A stretch of 64,000 nucleotides of DNA from an uncultured Gammaproteobacteria bacterium (GTDB lineage Bacteria > Patescibacteriota > Microgenomatia > Daviesbacterales > UBA10151), in assembly GCA_964360965.1 (NCBI GenBank), contig CAYHYM010000001.1, positions 8,878 to 72,877 on the forward strand. The letters are read 5' to 3'. Under the pieces are notes generated by a model. That model ran no database searches and was not told the DNA's origin. It saw only the letters and a list, made by a program, of their open reading frames with translations. Each line of letters opens with the position of its first letter. Position 1 is the first letter of the stretch. This document shows, in pieces, positions 12,681 through 62,661 of this stretch. The translations under genes and the position numbers were made by a program.

Positions 12681-13287
12681 AAATTTGATTTGAATAAGAG
12701 CCTCCAAAAGCTGCACACCAAATATCTGAAGCAGTAGACCTTAATGATGAATTGTATTTCCAGTTTTTAAGTCCGCATCTTTCAGAATCATTGGTATTTT
12801 CCAGCTGTGCTGTCAGGTCATAAGTTTGACCATCAGCAGTAACATTTCCATAAGTATAGGAATAATTTCCACCAACCCAAGGACCATTGGCATTATTGAT
12901 AGGGTCAATTGGTAGCCTGGGAGTAATACCACCATTGACTAAAGCAGGAATCCAACCCTCTCCTGTAGTACTGTAGACATAACAATTGGATCCGTAAGCA
13001 CAACTACCAGCAGTGGGATACTTACCAGCACCAGCACGATAAGCCTCCAAATAGGTATTGATTTTATTAAGATCAGCTTTTCTTTTAGCATCTCTGGCAT
13101 TTTTTTGAACACCTGAGTAGGCAGCTATACCTATCACAGAAAGAATACCAAGAATGGTAATAACAACCAGCAATTCAACCAGGGTGAAACCCTTCGACTC
13201 ACTATGCTCGCTCAGGGCAAGGCCACGTTTATCCTGAGCAAACCTGTACTGAGCGGAGTCGAAGTAGTCGAAGGAGGCAGATTTCAT
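12658..13287 (-). CDS. type IV pilin (PilA-like) with N-terminal extension derived from a palindromic repeat element
   Basis: SKGFTLVELLVVITILGILSVIGIAAYSGVQKNARDAKRKADL. The 32-aa leader MKSASFDYFDSAQYRFAQ... is encoded by the repeat at 13190-13274. Confidence 0.7.
   Translation of the reverse strand: MKSASFDYFDSAQYRFAQDKRGLALSEHSESKGFTLVELLVVITILGILSVIGIAAYSGVQKNARDAKRKADLNKINTYLEAYRAGAGKYPTAGSCAYGSNCYVYSTTGEGWIPALVNGGITPRLPIDPINNANGPWVGGNYSYTYGNVTADGQTYDLTAQLENTNDSERCGLKNWKYNSSLRSTASDIWCAAFGGSYSNQIYEASPDR
13190..13274. repeat. GTCGAAG/CTCAGTAC-family palindromic element (inverted CCTTCGACT ... AGTCGAAGG arms) embedded in-frame in the pilin 5' end
   Basis: Reverse complement matches 54391-54435 and 62450-62495 (GGTTCGAyTACTTCG...CTCAGTACAGGTAC). 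Confidence 0.6.
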
Positions 13288-13310
13288 ATTCTTGTTTAAT
13301 TATAACATAA

Positions 13311-13874
13311 TTAATCATCACTGGTAATTACATAAGCATTATCCCAGCCTGGTCCGGTTATAGCTGCCCCATTACAATCTTTGACTAATCTTAAGCCGTT
13401 ACGATTAGCATCATTTTTATTTTCCAAAAGAGCCACTAAAATAAAAAATTGTCCTTTTTTCGCAGCACAAAGCGCACTATGGTAACCTCTGTAGCCATAG
13501 TAGTAGCCTGTTTCTAAATTATTCCAGACCGTACCTGGTCCGCTGTTAAGAGGGTCTGTGGGCATCCGGCTGATATAACTACTATCCAAATTTTTCTGGG
13601 TGTCTGTACAACCTGCAAAATCCTCATCAGTAATCCAACTACCACCACTGGCAGAAGATTTCCAGACATTATCACCGGGACAAGGATAGCGGTTATTTTT
13701 TTGATAATACAACTCTAGAGCCACCTTTACAGCTCTTAAATCATCTTTTCTTTTAGCATCCCGGGCATTTTTTTGAACACCGGAGTAGGCAGTCAAACCC
13801 ACCACTGATAAAATAGCCAAAATAGTGATAACAACTAAAAGTTCAACGAGGGTGAAACCGGATCTTGGCCGCAT
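13311..13874 (-). CDS. type IV pilin (PilA-like paralog)
   Basis: RSGFTLVELLVVITILAILSVVGLTAYSGVQKNARDAKRKDDL. Confidence 0.75.
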   Translation of the reverse strand: MRPRSGFTLVELLVVITILAILSVVGLTAYSGVQKNARDAKRKDDLRAVKVALELYYQKNNRYPCPGDNVWKSSASGGSWITDEDFAGCTDTQKNLDSSYISRMPTDPLNSGPGTVWNNLETGYYYGYRGYHSALCAAKKGQFFILVALLENKNDANRNGLRLVKDCNGAAITGPGWDNAYVITSDD

Positions 13875-14275
13875 TATTGTTGGTTAGACTTACAAAAAGT
13901 GCCGGTAGAACTTTCAATGGTGGCGCAAACTTTGTAAGTTGCACCTGACGCACTTTCATTAGCAGCTCCACCGCTATAATCATAAGCAACATTAGTCAGG
14001 GGATCTCTGGGGATTGACTGGTTGCTAAACCATGTTGCCTGAAGTGCCGGATAATTTGGGGTAGTTTGACTGTAATGAACTTCCCAGGCTTTAGAAATGG
14101 CATCTACATCTCCTCTTCTTTGAGCATCTCTGGCATTTTTTTGAACACCAGTGAAGATGGTAATACCAATTACTGACAAAATGGCAATGATAGTAATAAC
14201 AACTAACAGCTCAACCAAAGTGAAACCAGATTTGTTTACACTAAAATTTATTGAAGTGGGCAGATACTTTTTCAC
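13874..14275 (-). CDS. type IV pilin (PilA-like paralog)
   Basis: KSGFTLVELLVVITIIAILSVIGITIFTGVQKNARDAQRRGDV. Confidence 0.75.
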   Translation of the reverse strand: MKKYLPTSINFSVNKSGFTLVELLVVITIIAILSVIGITIFTGVQKNARDAQRRGDVDAISKAWEVHYSQTTPNYPALQATWFSNQSIPRDPLTNVAYDYSGGAANESASGATYKVCATIESSTGTFCKSNQQ

Positions 14276-14309
14276 AATGATTTATCATTGCCATAATCTG
14301 GATTGATTG

Positions 14310-15164
14310 TCAAGGATTTAAGGTTAAATACCAATTCAAAATCAAATTTCCCCAAAAAAGAGCCACCAATGATCCTAAAACCAAAAACGGGCCAAAGGGC
14401 AGATTCTGTCCAAATTTCTTTTTACCCAAAATTATCAAAAATATGGCCACTGCCGCTCCTGTTAAAAATGATAAGAAAGTGGCCAAAACCGCATTGGGAA
14501 AACCCAATCCCAAACCCATAAAAGCCCCCAGCTTGACATCTCCTCCTCCCATGCCTTTACCGCGGGTAATGGTAATAAGGGCCAGGTAAAATCCTGCCAA
14601 AAAAAGTGCTGTCAATATTGAGAAAAAAAACTGCTCCAGCATTATCTGGGTATGTCTTATAAAATAAGGACTGTGAGGGGGAAGCAGCAGCCTTCCCACC
14701 AAAGATTGTGAAAGATAAAAATAAAGATAGCCAATCTTATATAAAGTAAGACTGATCAGCCATATTAGTAAAGTGACCATGGCAGGCCAAATTATCCGGT
14801 CAGGGATCAGCATTTTTTTAAAATCTGTTAAAAAAATTATGGTCAGAACTGTGATAAAGAATACTTTAAAAAAAAGCTCAAGAAGTTGAATTGGGGAGGG
14901 GAGCGAAGTCGAGGGAATGGAAGTTGAGAAAAGATAGGCTATCAAAAGACCTATCACAATCTCCATCCACAAATACTCAGTAGAAATCTTTTTATGGCAA
15001 TACCTGCATTTACCATAGAGAATTAGATAGGAAAAAATAGGAATAAGGTCATACCATCCAAGTTGATGTTTACATTTTGGACAGTACGACCTTCCCCAAA
15101 AAGACCGCTTTTGTAAACTGCGATCAGCCAAGGCTTTAACCAGACTCCCCAGAACAGCCCCCAC
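14310..15164 (-). CDS. pilD: prepilin peptidase (A24 family)
   Basis: N-terminal CPKC...CRYC zinc motif, polytopic membrane protein, GGGDVKLGAFMGLGLG catalytic region. Confidence 0.85.
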   Translation of the reverse strand: MGAVLGSLVKALADRSLQKRSFWGRSYCPKCKHQLGWYDLIPIFSYLILYGKCRYCHKKISTEYLWMEIVIGLLIAYLFSTSIPSTSLPSPIQLLELFFKVFFITVLTIIFLTDFKKMLIPDRIIWPAMVTLLIWLISLTLYKIGYLYFYLSQSLVGRLLLPPHSPYFIRHTQIMLEQFFFSILTALFLAGFYLALITITRGKGMGGGDVKLGAFMGLGLGFPNAVLATFLSFLTGAAVAIFLIILGKKKFGQNLPFGPFLVLGSLVALFWGNLILNWYLTLNP

Positions 15165-15178: not shown

Positions 15179-15727
15179 TTAGTATATACAGCTTCCTACT
15201 GATGCGGCATTGAGTGTCAATCCAGAACCCACCTCAAACTTATCAGTTTCATTACCTCCATCAGTTATCATCTTGCCGGACTGTTGAACTGATTCCAAAA
15301 CCGTATTTATTTCCCAACCAGTACCATTTGAACAGTAGGTGTAATGATAAGCTGTGGAGTTGGTAGGATCAACCGGTAAAGTTGGCACTGACACACTCTG
15401 TTGTGAAGAAAGGTCAACCTTAACCCAACCTGTTCCATTAGATGCTCTTGAACCTGTGCTTACACCACTGCAAGGGACTGTCAGATCCTTACACAAAATA
15501 GCGGCAGATGAAGACGTTGCTTCCTGAACTGCCACATTAATAGCCTGTTGCAAGTTGGCCAGATCTGTCAATCTGGCAGCATCCCGACCCCTTCTTGTTA
15601 ATTCCAAAGGATTAATAATAAGTACCACCACTGCTGCCAATATGGCAATAATGGCAATAACAACTAAAAGTTCCACCAAAGTGAAACCCTTTGATTCACT
15701 TCGTTTACTCAGGGCAGATTTACTCAA
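15179..15727 (-). CDS. type IV pilin (candidate major pilin, adjacent to pilC)
   Basis: MSKSALSKRSESKGFTLVELLVVIAIIAILAAV. The leader SESKGFTLVELL is shared with the 12658 pilin. Confidence 0.75.
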   Translation of the reverse strand: MSKSALSKRSESKGFTLVELLVVIAIIAILAAVVVLIINPLELTRRGRDAARLTDLANLQQAINVAVQEATSSSAAILCKDLTVPCSGVSTGSRASNGTGWVKVDLSSQQSVSVPTLPVDPTNSTAYHYTYCSNGTGWEINTVLESVQQSGKMITDGGNETDKFEVGSGLTLNAASVGSCIY

Positions 15728-19957: not shown

Positions 19958-20572
19958 ACCATGCTGACTCAAGCGGGTCTTAAAAAAACCCATCCAGATG
20001 TTTTATATTTCGAACGCAGTGAGAAGTTAGGCATTGGTGAAGCCAGAAAAATCAAAAACCATTTTTCCCATAAACCATTTCAGGCCAAGGGTAAAGCCGT
20101 AGTTTTGGAAGATGCAGGCATTTTAACTCCTGAGGCCCAAAATGCCCTGTTAAAAACTTTAGAGGAACCACCTGCTGACGCCCTGATAATTTTGGCAGCT
20201 TCATCAGACGCTCAATTTTTACCCACCATTTTATCCCGCTGCCAGATAATTAATCTTGAAGGTAGAAAGTATAACAATTATAACAACTATAAAAATTATA
20301 CTAAAGATCTCGAGGCTTTGTTAAAAGCAGATATCCCAGAAAGGTTTGAATATATTGAAAAACTAAAGGACAGGGGAGAATTTTTAAAATTTTTAATTCA
20401 AGCTTTCCGTCAACAACTACTACAGTCTACGCACGCCAAGTCTGACTTGGCGAGGCTGGAAATACAGAATTTCCTGAAGGAGCTTTTGCAGGCCGAGCAG
20501 TGGGCAAAACAAAATGTCAATATCCGGGCCATTTTGGAATATTTAATGCTGGTTATGCCCCAAAAATTGTGA
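19958..20572 (+). CDS. holB: DNA polymerase III delta-prime subunit-like (short form lacking P-loop region)
   Basis: THPDVLYFE...GKAVVLEDAGILTPEAQNALLKTLEEPPADALIILAASSDAQFLPTILSRCQII. Later ATG chosen because the track start at 19817 is 28 bp from the divergent pilB start. Confidence 0.55.
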   Translation, partial: TMLTQAGLKKTHPDVLYFERSEKLGIGEARKIKNHFSHKPFQAKGKAVVLEDAGILTPEAQNALLKTLEEPPADALIILAASSDAQFLPTILSRCQIINLEGRKYNNYNNYKNYTKDLEALLKADIPERFEYIEKLKDRGEFLKFLIQAFRQQLLQSTHAKSDLARLEIQNFLKELLQAEQWAKQNVNIRAILEYLMLVMPQKL

Positions 20573-22566: not shown

Positions 22567-22620
22567 TGGATTTTGCTAACGCGGCACTGAGCGTAGTCGA
22601 AAGGCAATAGAGGTTTATGT

Positions 22621-24572: not shown

Positions 24573-27104
24573 ATGAACATTGGTAAAATTCAACCGGCTC
24601 CCATAATTGAAGAGATGCAGCGGTCCTATTTGGACTATGCTATGTCCGTCATAGTCTCTCGGGCCTTACCTGATGTCAGAGACGGCCTAAAACCGGTGCA
24701 GCGACGCATTATCTATGCTATGCATGAGCAAGGATTGCACCATACCTCAAGATATCAAAAGTCTGCAGCAGTTGTTGGTGAAGTTTTAAAGAATTTTCAT
24801 CCCCACGGAGATACCCCTGTCTATGAAGCCATGGTGAGAATGGCCCAAAATTTTTCCATGAGATATATGCTGGTTGACGGCCAAGGAAATTTTGGCTCCA
24901 TTGATGGAGATTCACCGGCAGCCATGCGATATACTGAGGTAAAATTATCCTCAATATCAGAAGAATTACTGCGTGATATCAACAAAAACACTGTTGATTT
25001 TACGGATAATTATTCAGGAACAACTCAAGAGCCCGTCCTGTTGCCATCCGTTATACCCAATCTGCTGCTTAATGGAGCCTCAGGTATAGCTGTTGGCATG
25101 GCCACCCAAATTCCACCCCATAATTTGGGGGAAGTATGTGATGCCTTGGTCTATATGATAGAACACCCAACCAGAACTGTCATTGCGACCCCGAATGAAA
25201 CAAGGGGGGATAACAATATATTTTCCTCTGATGCCACTGTTGAAAATTTAGTCCAGTTCATCAAAGGTCCGGATTTCCCCACAGGCGCTGCTATTTTTGA
25301 TCAAACAGAAATTATGGCAGCTTATGCAACTGGTAAAGGCAGGATTGTCATGCGCGCCAGAGCAGAAGTTGAGGAGACAGAGGCGGGCTCGCCTCGCTCC
25401 GCGGGCGGAGCGGGAAAAATGCAAATCATAGTCACGGAAATCCCATATCAGGTTAATAAATCCACTCTTATCTCAAGGATGGCCGAGCTGGTCAAAGATA
25501 AAAAAATAGAGGGGATTGCGGATTTGCGCGATGAGTCTGACAGAACACAGATGGTGCGAATTGTGATCGATCTGAAAAGAGACGGGAAACCCCAATCAGT
25601 TCTAAATAATTTATACAAACATACTACTATGCAGTCTGTTTTTAATGTCAATATAGTAGGCCTTCTTGATGGAGTGCCGCATCTTTTAAACCTAAAACAA
25701 ATTCTGCAGGAGTTTGTCAACCACCGCCAGAGGATTGTCAAAAGACGTTCCGAATTTGAACTGGCTGAGGCTAAAGCCAGGGAACACATCCTGCTGGGAC
25801 TGACAATTGCCGTTGATCAAATAGACGATGTCATTGAAACAATTAAAAAGAGCAAAGACGTTGAGATGGCCAAAGTTAATTTAATGGCCAAATTTAAACT
25901 AACAGAGATTCAATCGGTGGCTATTTTGGATATGCAGCTGCGGCGTTTGGCAGCATTGGAAAGGCAAAAAATTGAGGATGAGCTAAAAATGGTTAAAGAA
26001 ACCATCGCCTATCTTGAGAATCTGCTGATCTCGCCTGAAAAAATCTTAAGAGTTATAAAAGATGAGCTGGTAAAAATTAAGCAAAAATATGCAGACCCGC
26101 GACGCACCAAAGTTTACAAACAAAAAGTGGGGGAATTTAATGAGGAAGATCTGGTAGCCAATGAGGTGACAATTGTCACCATTACAGAAGGAGGTTATAT
26201 CAAACGTCAGTCTCCCGCCTCTTTCAGGACTCAGGCCAGGGGAGGAAAAGGGGTTTTGGGCATTTCCACCAAAGAAGAAGATGCGGTTTCCCATATTTTT
26301 TATACCCAGACTCACGATAATATTTTATTTTTTACCAGTATTGGAAAAGTTTATCAGGTTAAAGTTTGGGATATCCCGGAAACACAACGGGCTGCCAGGG
26401 GCCAAGCTGTGGTTAATTTAATAAATATTGAGCAAAGGGAAAAAGTCACTGCTGTTTTAACCAGAAGAGAGAAAGGAGAGGCGGCCAAATACTTCTTTAT
26501 GTGTACCTCCCGTGGTACTGTCAAAAAAACCGCTCTTTCAGAGTATGCCCATATTAGAAAGAACGGGTTGTTGGCCATAAAACTGGGAGCGGGTGATAAC
26601 CTGGGCTGGGTTTACCCAACAACAGGATTAGATGATGTGATAATTGTGTCCCAAAAAGGCAAATCTATCAGATTTTCTGAAAAGGGGGTTAAGCCAACAC
26701 ACAGGGATACTTCAGGCGTCAGGGGTATCAGACTTACAAAAGATGATCAGGTGGTATCTTTAAATATTATTGGGGATGGACAGGGAGAGCTGCTGGTTAT
26801 TATGGAAAACGGTTTGGGTAAAAAGACCAATATTTCATCCTGGAAAAGACAAGGCAGAGGAGGACAGGGAGTGAAGGCTGCCCAGGTTACTGCCAAAACA
26901 GGGAATATTGTCACAGCATCTTTAGTTGATAAAACCATGGATACGCTGATTTTAACATCAACCAAAGGCCAACTGATAAAAATGGACCTTAAACAGGTGC
27001 CAACGCTGCAAAGACAAACTCAGGGAGTAATTTTGATGAGAGCAAAAGACGGGGAAAAAGTGGCAGCAGCCACAGTGGTATCATCCAAGGAGAAGGTAGA
27101 ATGA
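24573..27104 (+). CDS. gyrA: DNA gyrase subunit A
   Basis: [16 protein letters not shown], active-site region AAMRYTE, C-terminal beta-pinwheel repeats. 843 aa. Confidence 0.95.
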
Positions 27105-31109: not shown

Positions 31110-31142
31110 TAACTTACCCCCTTATAGATTAACCGACTCTTT

Positions 31143-32411: not shown

Positions 32412-32428
32412 TTTTCACTTTTCCCTTA

Positions 32429-36809: not shown

Positions 36810-36812
36810 ATT

Positions 36813-38720: not shown

Positions 38721-39788
38721 ATTAGACAGTATCTTGCAAAATCATACATTAAACAAAAACGCCGTAATTAATATTGTCCGACAAGGACCAGTATATCTGT
38801 GAGTCAGTATATCAGTGTTTCAGTGGATTAAAAATATTTGATAATTTGATAATATGGAAGTGTGATAAAAGATGTGAATATAAACTTTTGTCAAAAAGAA
38901 TAAACTCCTTGCACAAATACTGGCGCTTTTAACACCGATACACAGATATACTGAAAGATACACTGAAACTCCGAGCCCCTAGAAGGGCCTAAAAACGGCT
39001 GGTTAGGGGAGGGCCGCTATCTGCCATCATCTAGTTTAGGCTGTCAGGAAGGGCCAAATTGGTAGTTAGTAGTTTGTAGTTGGTAGTTGGTAGAAAACAG
39101 CAAATTTTTGAAGGGAAATATGAGAAATTAGGCACACAAAAATGCTTGATAAAAAACTTATGCCTTTTATAATTAAATTTATCCTGAGCAAGCCTGAAGG
39201 ACTCCTCCCTAATCCCACTTCTCTGACATCGCATAACCATGATTGTCCGACATTATTATATTTGGGGAAGAATGCGGAAAAGAGAGAATAGCCTTGGTCT
39301 TCTGATACGTGAGTAAAGAATCTCTAGATTACTCTCATGATCCTTCGCTAACGCTTGGGATGACAACTAGAAGAGCACCTCTCCTCCAAGAGGCTTCGGG
39401 TATTCTATGTAAGAAAGAATAAGCAATTATATGCACTAACTGACAGATTACTTTTAATCTTCAAGCGTCCATCCTTTTGCCGTAGGCAAAAGTGTACAGA
39501 GCTAATAACGAGAGTAAGATCGTGTGAGTCCTTAGAGTACGGAGTGCTATTGTGACAACGATCACAATAGTAGCGCAGTACTCGGGGGCTCGTAGTGCAC
39601 GAACATCGTGAGAGCACGAAGAGACCCATAGTTTTCCACATTTGAACTTGGCAAATATATAAAACTATATCACCTATAGTTTTCACGAAATATCTCATAA
39701 TTTTTCACAGTTCGACTTCGCTCACTGCAGGCACTCCTCTACTTCCAATTTGTCTTAACAATCCAATTCTCCATTGTCAATTGATTCT

Positions 39789-41179: not shown

Positions 41180-41848
41180 TTATTCCAAAATAAGATGTTC
41201 AATCAGTTTTAATTTTCTTTGATAGTCAGCTTGATCAAATACAAAATGTTTATATTTTTCCCTGCTTCCAAACATATCCAACACTAAATTTGGTTCTAAA
41301 AAACCATCATTACCAGTAAGATAATTTGAAAAGGATGACCACGGATACTTTTCTAATTCACCAACAGTTCTAACTATAAAATTTGTATAAGGATTTAGGT
41401 GTATATATCTTGAAACATGAATAAACTGTTCATCAGTCTCTATCCTCTTGGCTTTAAATTGATCTAAAAATAAGGAGCCGTCCCGTTCATTCCTGGTATT
41501 ATGATAACGAGTATAACTATTTTGGAAATTACCTATAAATTTTGAAATACCATCCTCCATTTTCTGCTTTAACAAGAAATGAAAATGATTGGGCATTAAA
41601 CAAAAACAAATAATATCAACTAATTTTTCTGCCTGGTTCGTAATTTTGGTAATCTCTTTTTGTTTATCTTGTTCCAACTCCAAAAATTTAGATAATCTAA
41701 TAGGTGGGCTTGAAACTCTATAAAATTCAATTGCCAAAATTGCCCTTTGGTATTCTTTTTTTGTGGTAAAGGTGGGTTGCTTATTTATACCTCTGTTGTA
41801 AACATGGTAGATCTCATCCGTTACAAGTGGAATTTTTCTACCTGGCAT
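41180..41848 (-). CDS. REP-associated tyrosine transposase (RAYT) paralog
   Basis: HuH motif LMPNHFHFLLK. Tyr region SRYIHLNPYTNFIV...YPWSSFSNY. About 50% identical to the 11442 copy. Confidence 0.8.
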   Translation of the reverse strand: MPGRKIPLVTDEIYHVYNRGINKQPTFTTKKEYQRAILAIEFYRVSSPPIRLSKFLELEQDKQKEITKITNQAEKLVDIICFCLMPNHFHFLLKQKMEDGISKFIGNFQNSYTRYHNTRNERDGSLFLDQFKAKRIETDEQFIHVSRYIHLNPYTNFIVRTVGELEKYPWSSFSNYLTGNDGFLEPNLVLDMFGSREKYKHFVFDQADYQRKLKLIEHLILE

Positions 41849-42526: not shown

Positions 42527-43387
42527 TTAAGTAGCCTCTCTTAAAATTTCCTCAGCTATATCAAAATTTGCGTAAACTTTTTGTACATCATCCAACTCCT
42601 CTATTTTTCGGGCAAAATCCAGTACTTTTTTGGCAGTTTCCTTATCTTTTATTTCCATCAAGGTATTAGGTTTATAAACAATTTCAGCCTGCTCTACCCC
42701 ATACCCTACTTGAGTAATTTTTGTACTCATAGTATTTAACTGGGAGCTTTCTACATATACTAAATATCCTCGCTTTTCTTGAGCGTCAGCGAAATCCCTT
42801 CGGGTCTGAGCTCTTCGAGTCCGAGCCTCAGAGTCGAGGACCTCAGGGTCGAAGACCTGAGCGAAGTCGAAGGATTCCACATCCTCCGCTCCCAAATCTA
42901 TTAACTCCAACATTTCCTGTTCTCTGTCATCCTCCTTTTCGGGGGCCCGCTGTCCCCTAACTTTTATCTCCCCAATTCTATCAAACATATAAGCCACACT
43001 TCCCTGCCCAGCCAAAGAACCACCTGCTCTTTCAAATAAATTCTTCACTTCCTGTAAGGTCCTCAGTTTATTATCTGTCATCCCCTCCACTAAAAAGGCC
43101 ACTTTCCCCGGCCCAAAACCCTCATACGTGACTTCTTCAATACTTTGACCGGGTAATTTACCCAAACCCCTGTCAATGGCCCGTTGCACGTTCTCCTTGG
43201 GCATATTAACAGCTTTTGCCTCATCCATGACTACCCTCAAACGAGGATTAGACTCCGAATCACCGGATCCCCCCATTTTAGCAGCAATAGTGATGGCATT
43301 AGCTACTTTAGTAAAGGTCTGTCCCCTCTTTATATCCGCAGCCCCTTTTTGCCTTTTTATCGTCGACCATTTGGAATGTCCGCTCAT
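42527..43387 (-). CDS. yebC: YebC/PmpR-family DNA-binding regulator with in-frame repeat-derived insertion
   Basis: MSGHSKWSTIKRQKGAADIKRGQ YebC N-terminus. About 100 nt of GTCGAAG/CTCAG repeat encode DVESFDFAQVFDPEVLDSEARTRRAQTRRDFADAQEK. Confidence 0.8.
   Translation of the reverse strand: MSGHSKWSTIKRQKGAADIKRGQTFTKVANAITIAAKMGGSGDSESNPRLRVVMDEAKAVNMPKENVQRAIDRGLGKLPGQSIEEVTYEGFGPGKVAFLVEGMTDNKLRTLQEVKNLFERAGGSLAGQGSVAYMFDRIGEIKVRGQRAPEKEDDREQEMLELIDLGAEDVESFDFAQVFDPEVLDSEARTRRAQTRRDFADAQEKRGYLVYVESSQLNTMSTKITQVGYGVEQAEIVYKPNTLMEIKDKETAKKVLDFARKIEELDDVQKVYANFDIAEEILREAT
42776..42876. repeat. GTCGAAG/CTCAG-family repeat tract inside the yebC coding sequence
   Basis: TTCGACTTCGCTCA 14-mer shared with 39711-39731. 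GTCGAAGACCTG 12-mer shared with 53975-53990. Confidence 0.55.
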
Positions 43388-48586: not shown

Positions 48587-48665
48587 AAATTATAATGATT
48601 ATAACGCATCGCGTTACAAGAAGCGATGCGATGTAATCGCAGAGCGATTATAACAGTTATAAAAA

Positions 48666-50138
48666 TTACAAAGCAACTGGTTCCAATCCTCTAACCTCTT
48701 CTTTGGGCTTGATATGATATTTTTCAGATTGATCAAGCACATCAGCGCTGGCCACAGGCAAAGAAAAAGTAAAAGTGGCGCCCTTACCCAAACCATCTGA
48801 GAAGGCCCAAATCCTGCCATGCATGAGATTTACCAAACTTTTGCAAATATAAAGTCCCAAACCTGTTCCGCCTGATGTTCCCATGGCTACATAGGAGTTA
48901 TCCAACCTGCCAAATTTGGTAAAAAGTTGTCCCAAATCCTCTTTGGCAATGCCTGAGCCTGAGTCTTTAACTGAAGTTTCAATAATCTGCCCGTCACCAA
49001 AAAATGAGATGCTAATTTTGCCTCCTGAGGGGGTAAATTTTAAAGAGTTTCCCAGCAGATTCAAAAGCACCTGATGCACTTTATTACGATCGGCAAATAT
49101 TTTTGGTATTGGGGTGCTCAAAATTTCAATTGTAATATTTCTCTCCTGGGCTCTGGGTTTTACCTCTTCCATCACCTCATTTACTAAAATGACCATATCA
49201 TACTCTTGCGGGTTTATCTCTATCCTACCCGCTTCAATCCTGGAAATGTTTAACATGTCAGAAACCAGATTAATCAATCTTTCTGTTGAAATCAAGGTCC
49301 TCTGAAGGTATTTTTTTAATTTTTCTGTTAAGGGAATATCAGGTCTGTTTAAGGCCATCCAGATATAGGAACGAATCGCTGTCATGGGTGTTCTTAGCTC
49401 GTGAGAAGTAACAGAAACAAAATCATCTTTTAGTTGATCTAACTGTTGAAGTCTGGTATTTGCAGTAACCAGTTGTCGACTAGTATCTTTTAGATTCTGA
49501 TAAAGAAAGGCGTTATCAAGTGCTCTAGAGACTTCCGCAGTAAACTCTTCCATAATAAGAATTTCTAAAGCTGACAGTTTTTCTTTCTCTTTGGTAGATG
49601 AGTATTCTAAGATTCCTACCACCTCACCTCTTATTAATATTGGGTAAAGAAAAATGCTTTTTAGTCTCCATAATCTTTGAATTTTAGCTGATATTTCTGA
49701 AGGCAAAACTCCTTTTTGAATATCATATAAATTTCTAGTATGTAGAGGCGTTTTATCTAGGACTACTTTGGTGAATAAGTTCTCTGTATTGGAAAGTGGA
49801 ACGATCTGTTCTTTAAATTTTACTGGCAACATATCATGTAAAGTCTGGGTCGAGTCTGAATCTAGAGATATAGCAATTCGTTTTATTATTTGAGCTTCCT
49901 TATCAACTAGCGCAAGGATAGCAAAAGTAAATCCCAGCTCTTTGTGAATTACTTCTACTATACCTTGGTATAAAGATTCAATTTCCGGGCTAGAAATTAC
50001 TAACTTATCTAAGCTTCTTAAAGCTTTTAAAAGCCTATTCTGAGAAGATAATTGAGAATATTTTGAAGCAATAATTCTTATACCCACTAGAGCGGAAATG
50101 ATGATTGTTATAATGATGAACAGAGCAGGTATTACCAC
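48666..50138 (-). CDS. sensor histidine kinase (TM, GAF-like, HisKA, HATPase_c)
   Basis: H-box HELRTPMTAIRSY. N, G1, G2 boxes LGNSLKFT and GTGLGLYICKSLV. Confidence 0.8.
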   Translation of the reverse strand: MVIPALFIIITIIISALVGIRIIASKYSQLSSQNRLLKALRSLDKLVISSPEIESLYQGIVEVIHKELGFTFAILALVDKEAQIIKRIAISLDSDSTQTLHDMLPVKFKEQIVPLSNTENLFTKVVLDKTPLHTRNLYDIQKGVLPSEISAKIQRLWRLKSIFLYPILIRGEVVGILEYSSTKEKEKLSALEILIMEEFTAEVSRALDNAFLYQNLKDTSRQLVTANTRLQQLDQLKDDFVSVTSHELRTPMTAIRSYIWMALNRPDIPLTEKLKKYLQRTLISTERLINLVSDMLNISRIEAGRIEINPQEYDMVILVNEVMEEVKPRAQERNITIEILSTPIPKIFADRNKVHQVLLNLLGNSLKFTPSGGKISISFFGDGQIIETSVKDSGSGIAKEDLGQLFTKFGRLDNSYVAMGTSGGTGLGLYICKSLVNLMHGRIWAFSDGLGKGATFTFSLPVASADVLDQSEKYHIKPKEEVRGLEPVAL

Positions 50139-53832: not shown

Positions 53833-54128
53833 ACACCCTCCTGTCATCCTGAACCCGCCACAGGCGGGTGAAGGATCTAATCTTTGGATTTTAGCATAAA
53901 CTTCCTTCCTATGTCATCCCGACGAATGTCGGGATCCATAAATAATGTGTTTAGTTGGATTCTCCTCGAGTCTGAGCGACCTCGGAGTCGAAGACCTGCA
54001 TTTGCAGGAATGACAGAAGAAAATCCTTAATTCCCTCTCTATCTCTTTTTAACCATTCCACATTGGAATGAACAAGTTTTCTCTTTCTTACCACGATCGG
54101 AGGATATTTGGTATAATTATTTTTTAGG

Positions 54129-54174
54129 CCGAGGTGTTTACACCGAGCTTGCCGAGGTGTTTACACCGAGCTTG
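54129..54174 (+). repeat. two tandem 23-bp copies of GCCGAGGTGTTTACACCGAGCTT immediately 5' of tRNA-Leu, duplicating the tRNA 5' nine bases
   Basis: Units at 54129-54151 and 54152-54174, with the tRNA beginning GCCGAGGTG at 54175. Each unit holds a GGTGT-TT-ACACC inverted repeat. Confidence 0.75.
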
Positions 54175-54257
54175 CCGAGGTGCTGGAATGGTAGACAGGC
54201 CAGTCTCAAAAACTGGTGATGGCAACATCATGAGGGTTCGACTCCCTCCCTCGGTAC
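54175..54257 (+). tRNA. tRNA-Leu (anticodon CAA), class II with long variable arm, no encoded CCA
   Basis: Hand-folded. Acceptor GCCGAGG/CCTCGGT, D arm CTGG-AATGGTAGA-CAG, anticodon stem CCAGT/ACTGG with loop CTCAAAA, 15-nt variable arm, T arm GAGGG-TTCGACT-CCCTC. Close to E. coli tRNA-Leu in architecture. Confidence 0.85.
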
Positions 54258-54382: not shown

Positions 54383-54500
54383 TTCGACTGGTTCGACTAC
54401 TTCGGTTACACTCAGTACAGGTACGCTCACCATAAATTCACTCACCACAAGTTCACTCAGGACAAGTCACTATCGCTTCCATGCTCAGGCTCGCACTTGT
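54383..54500. repeat. GTCGAAG/CTCAGTAC-family element downstream of tRNA-Leu
   Basis: TTCGACTGGTTCGACTACTTCGGTTACACTCAGTACAGGTACGCTCACCA is about 87% identical to 62450-62495, and the reverse complement matches 13235-13274. Confidence 0.55.
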
Positions 54501-56811: not shown

Positions 56812-57012
56812 TTATTTACTCCAGATTCCTCTTTTATTTTTCTTTGCTTCATCTTGGGCTACAAGTAATTCTTTCTGATATATCCAGGGTTTTTTGTGTC
56901 CCGCACCATACGGTACAGGACTATTTTGGTAGATAAGGGAGAAAGAAGTATTTTTAACATGAGGTAGGATATCTTCAAGTAAATTCTCTGAAACTGTAAT
57001 TAATTTAGACAT
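56812..57012 (-). pseudogene. chimeric remnant: repeated MSKLITVSENLLEDILPHVK module fused to a staphylococcal-nuclease-like C-terminal tail
   Basis: C-terminus KPWIYQKELLVAQDEAKKNKRGIWS resembles the end of SNase/thermonuclease. Too short for a functional SNase domain. Confidence 0.35.
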
Positions 57013-57687: not shown

Positions 57688-58890
57688 ATGGCCACTGAAC
57701 AAGGAATAATTAATTCTGGACAGGATTTTTTTAATTCACTTAGACTACGACATATTTATGGGGATCTGAATACAATTGAGGCTAAGATTAACAAGCGAAG
57801 CTTCTTGAGGTTAACTAATCCTGACCCAGACATTGTAGCAGCTGAAGCGGAAAGGATAATTCAAGCTGGACCACTCAGAGGCATTTCCTTTATTGAAGCA
57901 AATAAACAAGGTTACTTTGTTTATGAAGGTGCACCAGTTCCACTTGCTTGGTGGGCACCACATAGGTTCGAAAGACAGTTTCTTACCAGATTAGCTCATT
58001 CACTCACTGGTGAATTTCCTTTTATACTAGATGTTGCATGCGGAACTGGATTACTTGCTAAATTACTAGCAGCAGAAACAGATGCAAAAGTAGTTGGTTT
58101 AGATCCAGGAGAAATATTTAATGAGATGTCTGGTATTGATCGTTTACCAGATACTCCTGGCAATATATTGCTTAGAAAGAAAGATGTTTGGAAAGCAGTA
58201 AATACCTATGGTCCAAAGTATCCTTATCAATTAAACCGAGAAAGAAGAGAATTGTTAAAAAGACTAAAAAGGGAACCTGAAAAAGTATCTATTTTCTTAT
58301 CTCCAGAGTATCCTTACTCATCTTCTGCTAAAGAAGGGTTCAATCGACCCAATGAAGGAGTTGAGGAATTATCTGATGAAGTGAAAAGAATCCAGGAAAT
58401 AGCACCTCTTTACAAGGCTCCTTCCCCCATAGATTTAGTAATTTGCAGTTTTATGCCAGTTGGAGCTGATTTAACAGTACCTATCAGAGATGGCATTTAT
58501 CCTAAGGGTATTGTTTATGTTAGACAAATGCGTGGTGGGACCGGAACAGGTGATTATTTCTTATATGAATATCTAAATCCTGAAAGTTCTAAAAGATTAA
58601 GATACTCTCAGATAAGTTTTAATCCAGGTGAACATTACCAAGTAGTTGCCAGATGGCCAACCCCAAGTCAAAATAATTGGCATGCTAGTGAAACTAATAA
58701 ACTGCAAAGTCCTATGACTGCAGAAGTTGTGGTCCAACTGAGAAAGGATGTTGTTTTAGCCAAGACAGATAGGATCACTTGTCCAAGTTACCCTTGGGAT
58801 CAGGATATAGAAGATTTTCTTGGACAAGTATTGAGGAAGGAACTCTTTTTTGCTGGTATTGAACAAGCTACAAATTCCTTATTTGCTTAA
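57688..58890 (+). CDS. hypothetical protein with class I SAM-methyltransferase-like motif
   Basis: Motif I ILDVACGTGLLAKLLA followed by acidic VVGLDPGE. Confidence 0.45.
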   Translation: MATEQGIINSGQDFFNSLRLRHIYGDLNTIEAKINKRSFLRLTNPDPDIVAAEAERIIQAGPLRGISFIEANKQGYFVYEGAPVPLAWWAPHRFERQFLTRLAHSLTGEFPFILDVACGTGLLAKLLAAETDAKVVGLDPGEIFNEMSGIDRLPDTPGNILLRKKDVWKAVNTYGPKYPYQLNRERRELLKRLKREPEKVSIFLSPEYPYSSSAKEGFNRPNEGVEELSDEVKRIQEIAPLYKAPSPIDLVICSFMPVGADLTVPIRDGIYPKGIVYVRQMRGGTGTGDYFLYEYLNPESSKRLRYSQISFNPGEHYQVVARWPTPSQNNWHASETNKLQSPMTAEVVVQLRKDVVLAKTDRITCPSYPWDQDIEDFLGQVLRKELFFAGIEQATNSLFA

Positions 58891-58899
58891 TATTCACAA

Positions 58900-58949
58900 C
58901 TTCCACCCTTCGATACTTCGACAAGCTCAGTACTCAGGGTAAACCTGAA
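58900..58949. repeat. 50-bp deletion derivative of the 108-bp palindromic element at 60725-60832, 10 nt after a stop codon
   Basis: CTTCCACCCTTCGATACTTCGACAAG + CTCAGTACTCAGGGTAAACCTGAA; identical to the ends of the 60725 copy. Confidence 0.65.
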
Positions 58950-58977: not shown

Positions 58978-59349
58978 ATGGCTAAGAAAGTCATAAGCTA
59001 TGACCTTTTATTTGAAGTCAAAGATACTCTTGGTAGAAGGATACACACCACAAAAGATTACTGGCAGAAGATTAAAACCTTAAAGCATCGAGAATTAAAA
59101 TATGGTATTAATGAAGTTAAGACTACACTGACAAAACCAGATGAGATAAGAAGAAGTGTGACTGATTCTACTATTTTACTCTATGCACAAAGACAGCAAA
59201 ATTATGATATACTTATTGTGGCAGTTAAGGTTTTAAATGGTGAGGGTTTCTTAGTGACAGTTTATCAGACTAAGGATTATAAAAAGAAAGGAGAACTTAT
59301 ATGGCCAAAGCAAAAACAGAGGCTCGCCCTGAGCGAAGCCGAAGGGTAA
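58978..59349 (+). CDS. DUF4258-like putative toxin
   Basis: About 120 aa: HTTKDYWQKIKTLKHRELKY...ILLYAQRQQNYDILIVAVKV. Paired with a DUF2283-like gene. Confidence 0.45.
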   Translation: MAKKVISYDLLFEVKDTLGRRIHTTKDYWQKIKTLKHRELKYGINEVKTTLTKPDEIRRSVTDSTILLYAQRQQNYDILIVAVKVLNGEGFLVTVYQTKDYKKKGELIWPKQKQRLALSEAEG

Positions 59350-59588
59350 AAATTTATCTTGATCCTGTAGCAAATACCTTTAATATTTGGTGGGATGATC
59401 CTAAAAAGGCTTATTCCTCTGAAGAGGTAGATTCTCCAAACAGGAATGACGTAATTATTAAAGATAAACAAGGCAAACCAATTAGTTTGGAAGTGATTGG
59501 TATATTTCCAAGTGAACTAAATGTGGCAGAGAAGCTTAAAAGGACAATTGGAACTCCCAAAGAACCACTGCTTCTTCAATCAATTTAA
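59301..59588 (+). CDS. DUF2283-like small protein (putative cognate antitoxin)
   Basis: VKIYLDPVANTFNIWWDD...LEVIGIF resembles DUF2283. Overlaps the upstream gene. Confidence 0.5.
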   Translation: MAKAKTEARPERSRRVKIYLDPVANTFNIWWDDPKKAYSSEEVDSPNRNDVIIKDKQGKPISLEVIGIFPSELNVAEKLKRTIGTPKEPLLLQSI

Positions 59589-59746: not shown

Positions 59747-60715
59747 ATGACTCAAGAAACAAGAGCAGCTTTACTATTCCCAGGTCAAGGATTACCTTCT
59801 AAAGATATTGTTGCATGTTATCAAAGACTCAATAGTATTGATTCTACTCATATACAACAAAGATTAGGACGAGCCCAAGATGCAATAAATAAAGTTCATG
59901 GAAGTGCTGCTTTTGATATTAATATTGCTTTGCAGGATGAAAAATCTCCAAGCTTTACTCAGACTTCTTTTGTACAACCTGTGGTTTATACCCTTAGCGT
60001 CCTTACCTCTGAAATTACTGATGCTCACGGTATTGCCAGAATTGCTCCCAGTTTTGTGGCTGGGCATAGTTTAGGTGAGTACTCTGCTCTAACCAGGGCC
60101 AAAGTCTTTGATTTTGAACAAGGAGTTGATCTTGTTACATACCGAGGTTTGGTAATGGAAGAGGCATGTCAGAAAACCAAAAGCGTTTTACTTAGAATCA
60201 GTGGGTTAGCAGAAGATAGAGTAAGGGAACTTTGTCAACCAGGAGGCACAAGAATTGCTGAAGTTGCTTTGATCAATGCTCCAACATTGATAGTGGTAGG
60301 TTGTGCAGCAGAAGCTGCAACTGAAGTAGATAGATTAGCCAAAGAAGCTGGAGCTAGAGGTGCAACTGATTTAGGAACAGCTGGGGCTTTTCATACCACA
60401 TTTATGGAAGAAGCAGCTGACAAATTGGATAAAAAACTATTTGAATATGACTTTAAACACCCAGAAATTCCAGTTGTAACTAATTTTACAGGAAAACCTA
60501 TATATCATAGTATGCAAGCACAAGATCATCTAATTCAAGGCATGATCAATCCAGTTCAGTGGGCTAAGGTATTAGAAACTTTACAGACATCAGGTGTCAC
60601 GGTTTTTGCTGAAGTTGGCCCTGGAACTTCACTGGCTGCTTTAAATAGGATTAACAATATTCCTGAGGATAGAACAATAAATGTTCTTAACTGGTTTGAA
60701 CCACGAGGTACTTAA
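59747..60715 (+). CDS. fabD: malonyl CoA-acyl carrier protein transacylase
   Basis: FPGQG, active-site GHSLGEYSALT, conserved R (TYRGL) and GAFHTTFMEEAADKL all match FabD. Confidence 0.8.
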   Translation: MTQETRAALLFPGQGLPSKDIVACYQRLNSIDSTHIQQRLGRAQDAINKVHGSAAFDINIALQDEKSPSFTQTSFVQPVVYTLSVLTSEITDAHGIARIAPSFVAGHSLGEYSALTRAKVFDFEQGVDLVTYRGLVMEEACQKTKSVLLRISGLAEDRVRELCQPGGTRIAEVALINAPTLIVVGCAAEAATEVDRLAKEAGARGATDLGTAGAFHTTFMEEAADKLDKKLFEYDFKHPEIPVVTNFTGKPIYHSMQAQDHLIQGMINPVQWAKVLETLQTSGVTVFAEVGPGTSLAALNRINNIPEDRTINVLNWFEPRGT

Positions 60716-60724
60716 TATGTACAG

Positions 60725-60832
60725 CTTCCACCCTTCGATACTTCGACAAGACTTCGACGGTGAGTCTTTCGACCCTGAGCTCAAGACCGAAGGGCTCAGT
60801 CGAACCGCTCAGTACTCAGGGTAAACCTGAAG
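60725..60832. repeat. 108-bp composite palindromic element (GTCGAAG/CTCAGTAC family) 10 nt after the fabD stop
   Basis: Internal inverted pairs TTCGACCCTGAGC/GCTCAGTCGAA and TCTTTCGACC/GACCGAAGGG. The ends are identical to the 58900 copy. Confidence 0.7.
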
Positions 60833-60979
60833 CTGTTATTAAAAAGAGATTAGAACCTACTTCATAATAAGCTGCTTCATTTCCTCCATCAGAATATGCT
60901 TTAGAGCCTAAAAATTTAAGTAGTTTGATATACAAAATATACCTTGTATTTTAACAATTAGGATAATAAGATAGATACC

Positions 60980-61336
60980 ATGGATGAAAGTAAACTTAAA
61001 ACAATAGTTGAAGAAGTGGTAAATAAAGCCGTGGATCCAATCAAAAAACAGCTTGAAGATCCTAAAACTGGTTTAGCAGCAATCAATAGAAGGCTTGATG
61101 GTGTAGGAGGACAGTTGAATGATCCAGATACAGGATTAAAAAGAATTAATGAGAGATTAGATGCTAATACAGCAGCAGTCGTGGAACTTGAGAGTACAAT
61201 AAAAGGCTACGCTGATTCATACCAGACAAATGATGCTAATATTAGGAAAGTGGAAAAAAGATTGGAAACTTTGGAAGAGGATGCAAGAGTAAATGTCCCT
61301 TCTGAGTTACAACTTGCTCCTCAATCTGACCTTTAA
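60980..61336 (+). CDS. hypothetical coiled-coil protein
   Basis: 118-aa ORF with repeated DP(K/D)TGL...IN(R/E)RLD heptad-like units. Confidence 0.3.
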   Translation: MDESKLKTIVEEVVNKAVDPIKKQLEDPKTGLAAINRRLDGVGGQLNDPDTGLKRINERLDANTAAVVELESTIKGYADSYQTNDANIRKVEKRLETLEEDARVNVPSELQLAPQSDL

Positions 61337-61350
61337 TGCAAAACCTTTCA

Positions 61351-62661
61351 TCAGTTGTGTTCAATATATGCTTTGTAGCCAACTAGCTTTTTGTTATCCC
61401 CAGAGCCAGAGTAGATATTTTTAACTCCGAAGGTTAAAAAGAGATCATCTTTGGAATAGGTAATGGTAGTACCAGTATTATCTTGGGAATTTAAAGTCTC
61501 TTTAAAGTTAGAATTGGTAAGTTGATTTGTATAGTAATCCAAAAAGGCTTGAGGAATTGATAATAATTGTTCAGATTCCAGATAAATACCTTCCTCCTCA
61601 ATTCTTCTTTTGCCTGAAGTAAAAAGTAATACCTTCTTTTGGGTTTTCTCCCATTTAATATCTGAGTAGAGTTTAGGGAGTCCCGTACCATTCGGTACAG
61701 GATTAAAAGTAGTAAGTCCGCCTGTTGGAGAAACAGGGCTAGGTGAAGGCGTAGTCTCAAAAGAGATAATCTCGGAGACCTCTATTAAATTAGGGGTGGG
61801 GGTTAAGTTGCCCTTAATTTGAACTTTCATGCCTTCAAAATCTGATAAGTTAACATTTTTTGATGCAGGGTTAAGGGTCCAGAGGGTTTTATTTTTATCA
61901 TTTGCTTGCAGGTAATATCCTGCTGAGGATTTTTGGATTATTCCCTGGGCAGTAATACCTCTGTGTAAGATGGGAGAGAAATTAGGGAATAGTTTACCAA
62001 GACCATAGTTTATACCTGATTTAAAACCTATCCCAAAACCTCCCAACCCCCCGCCCACTCCTGCCATGATAATAATTAAAGCTAAAACAGGGATTCTTAA
62101 GGTAATCATCTGTCTTTTGAGCAGTTTATTTAAAAAAGCTCTTAAATAAGTAACAGGATTAGTTAAGAAAAAACCAAACAAAGGAGGATCTTTTTTAGAA
62201 GAAGGTTGGGTATTTTGATTTATTTCTATAATGGGAGGAAGTCCCGCACCAGACGGTGCAGGATTAGGGGTATTTGGCTCGCCTGGTGGCGAAGCTGGGA
62301 CAGGAGGAGGGGTAGTCTGTTCAACCTTTTCTTCATGTTCAGGGATAAATCTTCCATGTTCATCTCTTTTTTGATGGGAAGCCACAGCAGAATGGACTAA
62401 GTTTTCTGAAACAGGATATTGAGGGTAATCAGGGATATTGGGAGAATTTGGTTCGATTACTTCGACTGTGCTCAGTACAGGTACACTCACCACAGGTGGG
62501 GTATTAGGGGCTGAAGGAGTAGGTGTTTGAGGAAAGGTTGGATTAACAGATTGTTGGTAGGGATTATCGGGATCTACAGGATTAGTATGAGGGTTAAAGT
62601 TTGACCCAAAAGAAGGAGGGGGATTATTTTGATCCGGAGGATCTTTAGGCAGATTATCCAT
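61351..62661 (-). CDS. hypothetical single-pass membrane protein with Pro-rich N-terminus
   Basis: Pro/Asn-rich N-terminal 170 aa, one TM, C-terminal domain. Carries an in-frame GTCGAAG-family repeat (62450-62499) encoding VPVLSTVEVIEPN. Confidence 0.4.
   Translation of the reverse strand: MDNLPKDPPDQNNPPPSFGSNFNPHTNPVDPDNPYQQSVNPTFPQTPTPSAPNTPPVVSVPVLSTVEVIEPNSPNIPDYPQYPVSENLVHSAVASHQKRDEHGRFIPEHEEKVEQTTPPPVPASPPGEPNTPNPAPSGAGLPPIIEINQNTQPSSKKDPPLFGFFLTNPVTYLRAFLNKLLKRQMITLRIPVLALIIIMAGVGGGLGGFGIGFKSGINYGLGKLFPNFSPILHRGITAQGIIQKSSAGYYLQANDKNKTLWTLNPASKNVNLSDFEGMKVQIKGNLTPTPNLIEVSEIISFETTPSPSPVSPTGGLTTFNPVPNGTGLPKLYSDIKWEKTQKKVLLFTSGKRRIEEEGIYLESEQLLSIPQAFLDYYTNQLTNSNFKETLNSQDNTGTTITYSKDDLFLTFGVKNIYSGSGDNKKLVGYKAYIEHN

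Follow-up and report, generated by a model that had tools for sequence, protein, structure and literature searches.

A TCGAC-TNC-GCTC hairpin repeat within and between genes of a groundwater Daviesbacteria genome: a local branch of a pan-bacterial REP-like family

Palindromes tagged with CGTC or TGTC were defined as a class of repetitive extragenic palindromes (REPs) by Di Nocera et al., 2013 (PMC3733652). In that work CGTC-1 was equated with dRS3, R. conorii's CGTC-1 and its CGTC-4 were matched to the Rickettsia palindromic elements (RPE) RPE-6 and RPE-4, respectively, and intragenic copies were described; no transposase was known at that time (PMC3733652). A hairpin repeat is also the target of the Ssn family of single-domain GIY-YIG nucleases, which bind the repeat and cut single-stranded DNA (ssDNA) beside it (Chenal 2025, PMC11893778). 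The Ssn repeat is termed NTS in Neisseria, where it contains dRS3, and SRM generally; SRMs lie near 71% of Ssn homologues, SRM-rich genomes include Rickettsia, Wolbachia and Sphingomonas, and the NTS-ssnA-NTS layout resembles an insertion sequence (IS) (PMC11893778). Elements of the RPE-1 type are ~100-150 bp long (summarised in PMC10969869). Here we describe a dispersed hairpin repeat with the core TCGAC-TNC-GCTC in a 64-kb stretch (40.5% G+C; hereafter the window) of a groundwater Daviesbacteria genome, a member of the candidate phyla radiation (CPR) recovered from the Hainich groundwater metagenome; the sequence of this genome covered amounts to ~73 kb, that is, the window and 8.6 kb further on the same contig. 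The repeat is a local branch of a known pan-bacterial REP-like family, which elsewhere flanks small GIY-YIG genes, and not a new CPR invention, and its in-frame copies within genes are an already-known property of that superfamily.

The hairpin unit and its nested copies

An earlier reading of the window from its letters alone (the sequence-only reading) had proposed a dispersed repeat family present above chance, and the counts bear this out. CTTCGAC/GTCGAAG occurs 13 times in the window against 2.0 +/- 1.4 expected, CTCAGTAC/GTACTGAG five times against 0.8, and TTCGAC 23 times against 9.9, the last despite a depletion of TTCGA overall. A scan for the core TCGAC-N2-4-GCTC, with at most one mismatch and closed by at least three base pairs, found 9 core-plus-stem units against 0.9 expected, the maximum in any shuffle being 3. 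The common denominator of the copies is TTCGAC-N3-GCTCAG, with sites at 13249 (minus strand), 22587 (minus), 39711 (plus), 42857 (minus), 58917 (plus, with a 2-nt spacer) and 62461 (plus). The basic unit is not an element of ~100-150 bp but a hairpin of ~20 nt, in which a conserved 12-nt centre, TCGAC-TNC-GCTC, lies inside a variable, covarying stem of 4-6 bp. Across 115 independent cores that were not picked by their flanks, the flanks formed 3.34 consecutive pairs compared to 1.54 when shuffled (maximum 1.86), and the stems include ATGCT/AGCAT, GTGCT/AGCAC, GGGCT/AGCCC and TCACT/AGTGA among many. The evidence for the stem is its covariation and not its energy, because the bare unit is only marginally stable by nearest-neighbour energies.

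The spacer within the core is mostly T-N-C (TTC 44, TCC 24, TGC 16, TAC 10) and the opposite strand, GAGC-GNA-GTCGA, therefore carries a C-GNA-G mini-hairpin tip. GCGNAGC is a very stable DNA mini-hairpin motif (PMC13037366); that the tip of the unit might be the same motif is offered as a lead only. A unit can be read through without a stop codon in five of its six frames, and all five are used within the window, where they are read as FDFAQ or FDSAQ, STSL, LRTAQ, PERSRR and LSTVE.

Seven of the ten copies listed by the sequence-only reading have an exact or near-exact core (13190-13274, 22586-22606, 39711-39731, 42776-42876, 58900-58949, 60725-60832 and 62450-62499). The other three do not stand as full copies: 14885-14920 contains the exact 12-mer TCGACTTCGCTC but lacks a closing stem, 53945-53990 is degenerate, and 54383-54500 is homologous to 13228-13272 and 62452-62489 only over its first ~55 nt and does not fold (z = +1.1 to +1.4; z scores are given with RNA parameters unless marked as DNA). 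Copies beyond that list are a composite at 2966-3013, a unit at 59325-59348, three TGTC-tagged hairpins at 53842-54015 and a duplication at 54128-54182; the core-plus-stem scan picked up the first two and the last of these, at 2978, 59331 and 54145/54168. When hairpin potential was checked by folding, as had been suggested, the outcome was mixed: the fold of 13190-13274 is strong (z = -4.0 and -3.7 on the two strands; DNA z -3.0) and that of 60725-60832 moderate (z = -2.6, plus strand), but the z scores of 42776-42876, 58900-58949 and 62450-62499 are not significant.

The larger copies are units nested inside units, giving lengths of 50-108 nt. In the 50-nt copy at 58900..58949 (plus strand), an inner TACT-TCGACAAGCTC-AGTA is nested in an outer ACCCT-TCGA...CTC-AGGGT and followed by a CAGG-GTAAA-CCTG hairpin. 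This copy is identical to both ends of the 108-nt copy at 60725..60832 (plus), which differs by a 57-nt palindromic insert (60751-60807) that sits inside the inner unit and is homologous to the 60-nt insert in yebC described below. The two had been read as one element with and without an internal deletion of 58 nt, which is correct except that the indel is 57 nt. They had also been placed 10 nt after stop codons; the measured distance is 9 nt in both cases, after the stops of a methyltransferase-like open reading frame (ORF) and a fabD-like gene, and the shared sequence begins before those stops. The similarity starts at CTTAATAT, 2 nt before each upstream stop (58886-58893 and 60711-60718), so the element may supply the stop codon of the upstream genes. 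Further likeness between distant copies is seen in the unlinked stretches 13228-13272, 54392-54436 and 62452-62489, which are 82-84% identical over 38-45 nt.

Smaller copies include intergenic units and units that encode the ends of proteins. An intergenic unit, CAGT-TCGACTTCGCTC-ACTG, lies at 39706..39732 (plus), and a unit whose stem has decayed, oriented as GAGC-GTA-GTCGA, lies at 22585..22605 (plus), between the gyrB stop and the next gene. The composite GATTGCCA-[CCCTTCGAACCGCTCAGGG]-TAAACTGTCCTCGCAATGACG at 2966..3013 (plus) encodes the C-terminal tail, of 13 residues, of a KhpA-like KH-domain ORF (2661-3011) that sits directly upstream of trmD; the same architecture occurs in a viral contig (L015). 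The unit CCCT-GAGCGAAGCCGA-AGGG at 59325..59348 (plus) encodes ARPERSRRV where a DUF2283-like ORF (59301-59588) has its N-terminus.

Three TGTC-tagged hairpins (53842, 53912 and, on the minus strand, 54015) lie between efp and tRNA-Leu. The one at 53842..53878 (plus) reads TGTC-ATCCT-GAAC-[CCGCC ACA GGCGG]-GTGA-AGGAT (DNA fold z -4.8); that at 53912..53940 (plus) is the REP- or NTS-like TGTC-ATCCCGAC-GAAT-GTCGGGAT-CCA (DNA fold z -4.2); and that at 53957..54015 (minus), within which the degenerate 53945-53990 copy falls, has a TGTCATTCC-TGCA-AA-TGCAGG hairpin followed by a degenerate TCGAC/CTCAG unit (DNA fold z -3.3). At 54128..54182 (plus) a 23-nt tandem repeat, in 2.4 copies that are 100% identical, repeats the first 9 nt of tRNA-Leu, and at its junctions are hairpins, CACC-GAGCTTGCCGA-GGTG, whose centre differs by a single mismatch from that of the 58900 copy. 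This duplication adjoins the tRNA-Leu(CAA) gene upstream, and its stem is the same as that in the flanks of the first of two RAYT-like genes in the window. Downstream of tRNA-Leu, the non-palindromic array at 54383..54500 (plus) consists of TACTTCGAC 9-mers, the 45-nt shared stretch and then 15-mer tandem repeats.

The sequence-only reading had seen in one module a mimic of the T-arm of this tRNA. The match is of 9 nt, GGTTCGACT, between the array (at 54389) and the T-arm; because the unit starts with TTCGAC by definition and there is no T-stem partner, the resemblance is probably due to chance. Two structural readings of the core were likewise dropped, a hammerhead because the core residues it needs are absent and a tRNA-like T-loop because there is no matching T-stem. 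Rfam returned tRNA as the sole match, both at the gathering threshold and at E <= 5. No match was found when the literature was searched for the peptide and DNA strings of the unit, and nothing relevant when it was searched for palindromic in-frame repeats in CPR.

Insertions in reading frames and spread across bacteria

The analogy with Rickettsia that had been drawn for this family rests on in-frame copies, and in yebC it is supported. Against solved YebC structures, the encoded protein aligns throughout but has ~31 additional residues (between positions 172 and 208), exactly at the element. Most of 120 orthologues, all from Daviesbacteria or Microgenomates, lack the insertion and have the short loop EDVEDF-xE-D-NI-QKY. 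The composite at 42776..42876 (minus; residues ~171-204) consists of an outer unit, ATCCT-TCGACTTCGCTC-AGGAT, and a half-unit, and is common to the closest relatives, which have only a 7-residue version. These relatives read SFDFAQDFADAQEKQG, and the window has 20 further residues within that segment. In the DNA alignment these correspond to a clean nested block of 60 nt, the palindromic insert VFDPEVLDSEARTRRAQTRR at 42797..42856 (minus), which is found only in the yebC of the window and leaves a 2-nt (GG) ambiguity at its junction. Other orthologues have different short inserts in the same loop, for example EPFDSAQGK, EPFDGTQGK, SFDSAQD and one of 11 residues. In a pair of yebC genes 91% identical, a clean 21-nt insertion, CCCTTCGACTCCGCTCAGGGT, is present in one (L328), with no target duplication and no local template.

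Two further cases follow the same pattern. The 85-nt long hairpin at 13190..13274 (minus), an inverted pair of units, encodes most of the leader of the pilin ORF 12658-13287, such that a 33-residue leader derived from the element, MKSASFDYFDSAQYRFAQDKRGLALSEHSESKG, precedes the G-FTLVELL cleavage site, compared with leaders of 5-17 residues in paralogues. A degenerate half-unit at 15687..15715 (minus), 77% similar to 13190-13219, lies in the leader of another pilin ORF, 15179-15727 (ALSKRSESKG-FTL). In the ORF 61351-62661, the unit TACT-TCGACTGTGCTC-AGTA and its flank (62450..62491, plus), read from the minus strand as VPVLSTVEVIEPN, sit in a proline-rich, hypervariable N-terminal region in which orthologues have either no unit or different ones (such as LSGVEG and ILSEAEG). 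The comparison with orthologues and paralogues thus shows in-frame and lineage-specific insertion in yebC, in one pilin leader and in the 61351 ORF. PilD, which had been counted with them, is different: an exact core, TCGACTTCGCTC, without a closing stem (14898..14915, minus) is read as STSL in the interdomain loop, but insertion is unsupported there because that loop is variable among all 60 homologues and no longer than theirs. The behaviour that characterises RPEs, in-frame insertion into unrelated genes at sites where orthologues lack it, is therefore seen here in yebC, the pilin leader and the 61351 ORF, and in gyrA through a second repeat family.

The proposal that CPR have here a new analogue of RPEs specific to them fails, as the same core is found across phyla and belongs with the CGTC/TGTC REPs and the Ssn-related hairpins (PMC3733652, PMC11893778). 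A 17-base pattern, CCCTTCGAC-N3-GCTCAGGG, was found in at least 120 stretches of viral contigs and at least 120 of bacterial contigs representing one genome per species. Among the matches listed, the hosts span 27-73% G+C and many phyla and include cultured isolates; they comprise Acidobacteria, Bacteroidetes (among them cultured Flavobacterium, Tenacibaculum and Aequorivita), Cyanobacteria (Nodularia, Microcoleus), Sphingobium, Treponema, Agromyces, Chloroflexi, Planctomycetes, Saccharibacteria, Curtissbacteria and Parcubacteria. Elsewhere, too, copies often form inverted pairs or tandem arrays. By these pattern matches the family is pan-bacterial, occurring in nearly every bacterial phylum, and is not specific to CPR. 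In one viral contig (L063, IMG/VR contig 3300028178_000222, ~8020-8130), two occurrences of a 32-nt sequence, gcccgttgggcaccccttcttagaaggggaat, are separated by ~39 nt, with a unit inside this spacer; the arrangement looks like either a CRISPR-like array with a unit-bearing spacer or another nested repeat.

Small GIY-YIG genes and the competing explanations

A search of plasmids yielded one pattern match, in a Sphingomonas locus (L245), that lay under the annotation 'GIY-YIG nuclease family protein'; in that locus and in a Sphingobacteriales contig (L233), the GIY-YIG gene, of ~100 amino acids (L245 1574-1894, L233 1583-1891), has units on both sides. In 80 metagenomic loci encoding relatives of this protein, the 200 nt to either side of the gene hold 2.1 cores per kb, and the sequence beyond 1 kb ~0.03 per kb. 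The core is thus ~70-fold enriched within 200 nt of these small single-domain genes and lies in inverted orientation, with 24 copies in the R orientation (GAGC...TCGA) to 8 in F upstream, and 18 F to 12 R downstream. Of the 80 genes, 29 have a core within 300 nt; the typical ends read TGTCAGGCT-GAGCGGAGTCGA-AGCC ... GGCT-TCGACTCCGCTC-AGCCTGACA, and a GTCA tag accompanies 53 of 83 cores (64%) next to GIY-YIG genes in these other organisms. The termini of the proteins themselves are unit-encoded in 32 of 120 GIY-YIG homologues, as opposed to 1 of 150 PilD controls.

On balance, we are inclined to read the elements as REP-like ssDNA hairpin repeats of the superfamily that comprises the CGTC/TGTC REPs (dRS3, RPE-4, RPE-6) and the Ssn-related motifs, repeats whose spread depends on a GIY-YIG nuclease. 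In our model, an Ssn- or UPF0213-type GIY-YIG nuclease, which we infer to be encoded elsewhere in the genome, would generate or mobilise copies via a folded single strand. Units of ~20 nt, and palindromes of ~60 nt built from them, would insert precisely and often into earlier units, and such nested insertion would produce the composites of 50-108 nt. Because a unit has no stop codon in five of its six frames, insertions that add a whole number of codons could survive in genes, and these frame-preserving copies would persist where the protein tolerates them, for example in leader peptides, in loops at the surface, in disordered linkers and at the termini; outside such tolerant sites, intergenic copies alone would remain. 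The units would then be non-autonomous ssDNA hairpin elements whose genic copies have been winnowed by selection to those that keep the frame at tolerant sites. Of this model, the hairpin architecture is shown by covariation, and further parts that are shown are the clean lineage-specific insertions of 21 and 60 nt, the fact that every one of the five open frames is used in the window, the occurrence of the core in many phyla and its strong inverted flanking of small GIY-YIG genes.

Several observations weigh against this reading. No GIY-YIG gene was found by regular expression, tblastn or hidden Markov model in the 64-kb window, the additional 8.6 kb of contig or the ~73 kb in total from four related Daviesbacteria loci, and among 244 loci chosen for the motif only two have one, a frequency that fits a non-autonomous majority yet is no evidence for the link. 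The GIY-YIG proteins linked to the unit resemble UPF0213 (structures 1zg2 and 1ywl), and for Ssn proteins themselves ssDNA cutting has been demonstrated and transposition has not. The published SRM pattern, HGTCWYN(0-2)YYVSBRHN(0-5)WNVSBRGN(0-2)RNCYNB, has no match in the window (0.22 expected) and none near the 80 sampled GIY-YIG genes; with one substitution allowed it has three matches in the window against four expected, none of them at the elements, which is uninformative. GTCA is absent from the 10 nt around each of the window's six strict cores, no target-site duplication was seen at the copies, and the bare 20-nt unit is a marginal hairpin (~-0.9 kcal/mol).

Two of the alternatives concern how copies would arise. 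The units could be REP/REPIN-type elements mobilised by RAYT-like Y1 (HUH) transposases, enzymes established to act on ssDNA hairpins (cited in PMC11893778). Two RAYT-like genes lie within 64 kb and their positions change between relatives, one being found between yebC and ruvC only in the window and another on the other side of yebC in L328; moreover, the ACACC/GGTGT stem seen on either side of the first RAYT gene recurs in the hairpins upstream of tRNA-Leu. However, each of the three RAYT-like genes examined (11442-12119, 41180-41848 and L328 9163-9834) has flanking hairpins of its own, which are of the CACC(N)GGTG type and lack the TCGAC-GCTC core, a RAYT homologue occurs in only 1 of the 244 motif-bearing loci, the units have no GTAG tag, and the core is strongly tied to GIY-YIG genes instead, and we therefore think RAYT mobilisation unlikely. 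It would take no dedicated enzyme at all if the copies arose and grew locally through slippage during replication, template switching at quasi-palindromes and synthesis primed by hairpins, the likeness between them being one of shared short words. The composites are indeed assembled from a small set of words used in either orientation, tandem arrays of 9, 15 and 23 nt adjoin units, words of the host unit recur in the nested inserts, and target-site duplications are absent. Against such growth stand the same 12-nt core with covarying stems in unrelated phyla of 27-73% G+C, a 45-nt stretch 82-84% identical at three unlinked loci, a 50-nt copy that equals the ends of the 108-nt copy, the L328 yebC insertion of 21 nt that has no local template, and the association with GIY-YIG genes, which it leaves unexplained, and we regard it as quite improbable.

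Host selection for a function, with the elements not mobile but retained for what they signal in RNA or DNA (for instance as transcription terminators, stabilisers of mRNA or sites for protein binding), seems to us very unlikely. Two copies do lie 9 nt after stop codons, the 3' CAGG-GTAAA-CCTG hairpin with its T-rich stretch scores as terminator-like at 60816-60830, and REPs often lie downstream of genes and have been proposed as RNA elements (PMC3733652). Nevertheless, terminator-like matches number 3 against 1.6 +/- 1.4 and so are not above chance, units occur in both orientations to transcription and, in five frames, within coding regions, Rfam has no match for them, and presence or absence at the same site varies between close relatives. 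Returning to GIY-YIG-dependent spread, a bolder version of it is that the TCGAC-TNC-GCTC hairpin and its TGTC-tagged form are the ends of a pan-bacterial IS-like element whose sole gene is the ~100-residue GIY-YIG ssDNA nuclease, and whose ~21-nt derivatives remodel essential CPR proteins. This we hold to be doubtful, if worth stating. Were it true, there would be a class of transposon in which a GIY-YIG enzyme replaces the transposase, its non-autonomous derivatives of ~21 nt would be the smallest known mobile DNA units, and the essential proteins of streamlined CPR genomes would be actively remodelled by in-frame insertion.

In this ultra-small CPR genome, tiny hairpin repeats are an ongoing source of indels in proteins, with gains of 21 and 60 nt that can be dated between close relatives and with central genes among those hit (yebC, and gyrA by the second family). 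Through this repeat family the RPE analogy, the CGTC-tagged REPs and the Ssn nucleases become connected, and the published SRM search pattern is seen to overlook a variant of the core that is widespread and lies beside roughly a third of the sampled metagenomic GIY-YIG genes. For annotation, many unit-encoded terminal peptides, such as FDSAQG, LSEVEG and PERSRR, should be regarded as repeat read-through and not as protein sequence.

Neighbouring repeats and comparison with described systems

The two RAYT-like Y1 (HUH) transposase genes of the window are 48% identical to each other and score 58 and 51 bits against NF047646, under its 80-bit cut-off, with the HUH motif PNHxHF present. The gene at 11442..12119 (minus), bracketed by ACACC(N)GGTGT hairpins, is a candidate for an alternative mobiliser. 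The second, at 41180..41848 (minus), is flanked by 43-nt inverted repeats and, together with an ORF of 212 amino acids (41880-42518), is inserted between yebC and ruvC, which overlap in the relatives L124, L328 and L329.

A second family of GC-rich palindromes is represented by GGTCTCGCCTCGCTTCGAGGTCGAAGCGGG at 11317..11346 (minus), which encodes 10 residues of the leader of the pilin ORF 10795-11361, and by a 30-nt palindrome with the stem CGCTCCGC/GCGGAGCG at 25386..25415 (plus), which lies in frame in gyrA as an insertion of 7-9 residues relative to solved GyrA structures. This family (…CTCGCTCCGCGGGCGGAGCG…; peptides SPRSAGGAG and one of 10 residues) is also present in yebC of other Daviesbacteria, in the same loop or nearby, with a copy in L124 at ~10430-10460. 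A 26-nt repeat, GTCCCGYACCAnnCGGTRCAGGAYTA, with a GTACC/GGTAC hairpin occurs at 56898-56923, 61680-61705 and 62241-62266; two of its copies are in frame in the 61351 ORF (NPVPNGTG and NPAPSGAG), and it may be a third intragenic hairpin family. Elsewhere in the window, several large ORFs of the minus strand at 30847-36902 contain recurring repeats of the GGTGATGGACTGGGACTTGGTGAAGG type, which on the coding strand are rich in Gly, Asp and Glu, paralogous 204-nt blocks at 30905 and 32207 are 82% identical, and short tandem 9-mers (TATAACAAT-like) occupy AT-rich spacers at 20261-20309, 30189-30228 and 48640-48670.

The Ssn/SRM system resembles the unit family in its dispersed hairpin repeats of 20-50 nt in hundreds of copies, in the bracketing of a ~100-residue GIY-YIG gene in inverted orientation (seen for the unit in other organisms), in the GTCA 5' of the stem in gene-adjacent copies, in a GCG-N(N)A-GC-like mini-hairpin tip, and in a cross-phylum spread that includes Sphingomonas. 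Inverted repeats of 20-50 nt able to fold, as expected of SRMs, are present in the window, as judged by the covarying stems and the strong folds of 13190-13274, 53842-53878 and 53912-53940. The 5' flank of SRMs (HGTCWY, the 'GTCA' tag) is found at 53842, 53912 and 54015 (minus) but is absent from the TCGAC-type copies of the window. The core here is TCGAC-TNC-GCTC in a short stem of 4-6 bp, the published degenerate pattern misses all copies, and about half of the window copies lie in ORFs, whereas NTS is intragenic in 2%. In addition, no ssnA-like gene was found in the sequence covered (the window with its 8.6-kb extension, and the relatives). The Ssn clade is cd10448 and UPF0213 is cd10456; the GIY-YIG proteins linked to the unit, which resemble UPF0213 structures, may belong to either. 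Since none of the six strict cores has the tag and the SRM pattern finds none of them, the TCGAC-type units are, on their sequence, better described as an SRM-related variant than as members by the published definition.

With the CGTC/TGTC REPs the family shares small tagged palindromes that often form inverted dimers and lie mostly downstream of genes, and in-frame intragenic copies in housekeeping genes. The hairpin at 53912-53940 has the tag, the 8-9-bp stem starting with A-T, the 4-5-nt loop and the CCA-like tail by which these REPs are recognised, and it fits CGTC-1 point by point, with a TGTC tag, an 8-bp stem starting AT, a 4-nt loop and a CCA tail. The TCGAC-type units differ in their conserved 12-nt centre, their stems of 4-6 bp and the lack of a tag in this genome; CGTC REPs have been reported in five phyla, CPR not among them. 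REP/REPIN-RAYT systems are similar in having ssDNA hairpins, inverted dimers, a flanked single-copy gene and a non-autonomous majority, but the gene linked to the unit is a GIY-YIG nuclease and not a Y1 HUH transposase, and the RAYT-like genes of this genome are bracketed by other hairpins. Finally, the family resembles RPE-1 in that palindromes are inserted in frame into genes unrelated to each other and are tolerated where the protein is exposed at its surface, and is set apart from it by size, the mobile unit being 20-60 nt and composites at most 108 nt here compared to ~150 bp, and by a pan-bacterial rather than genus-specific distribution. The RPE analogy is nonetheless partly a homology, because the CGTC REPs already include RPE-4 and RPE-6, with intragenic copies known (PMC3733652).

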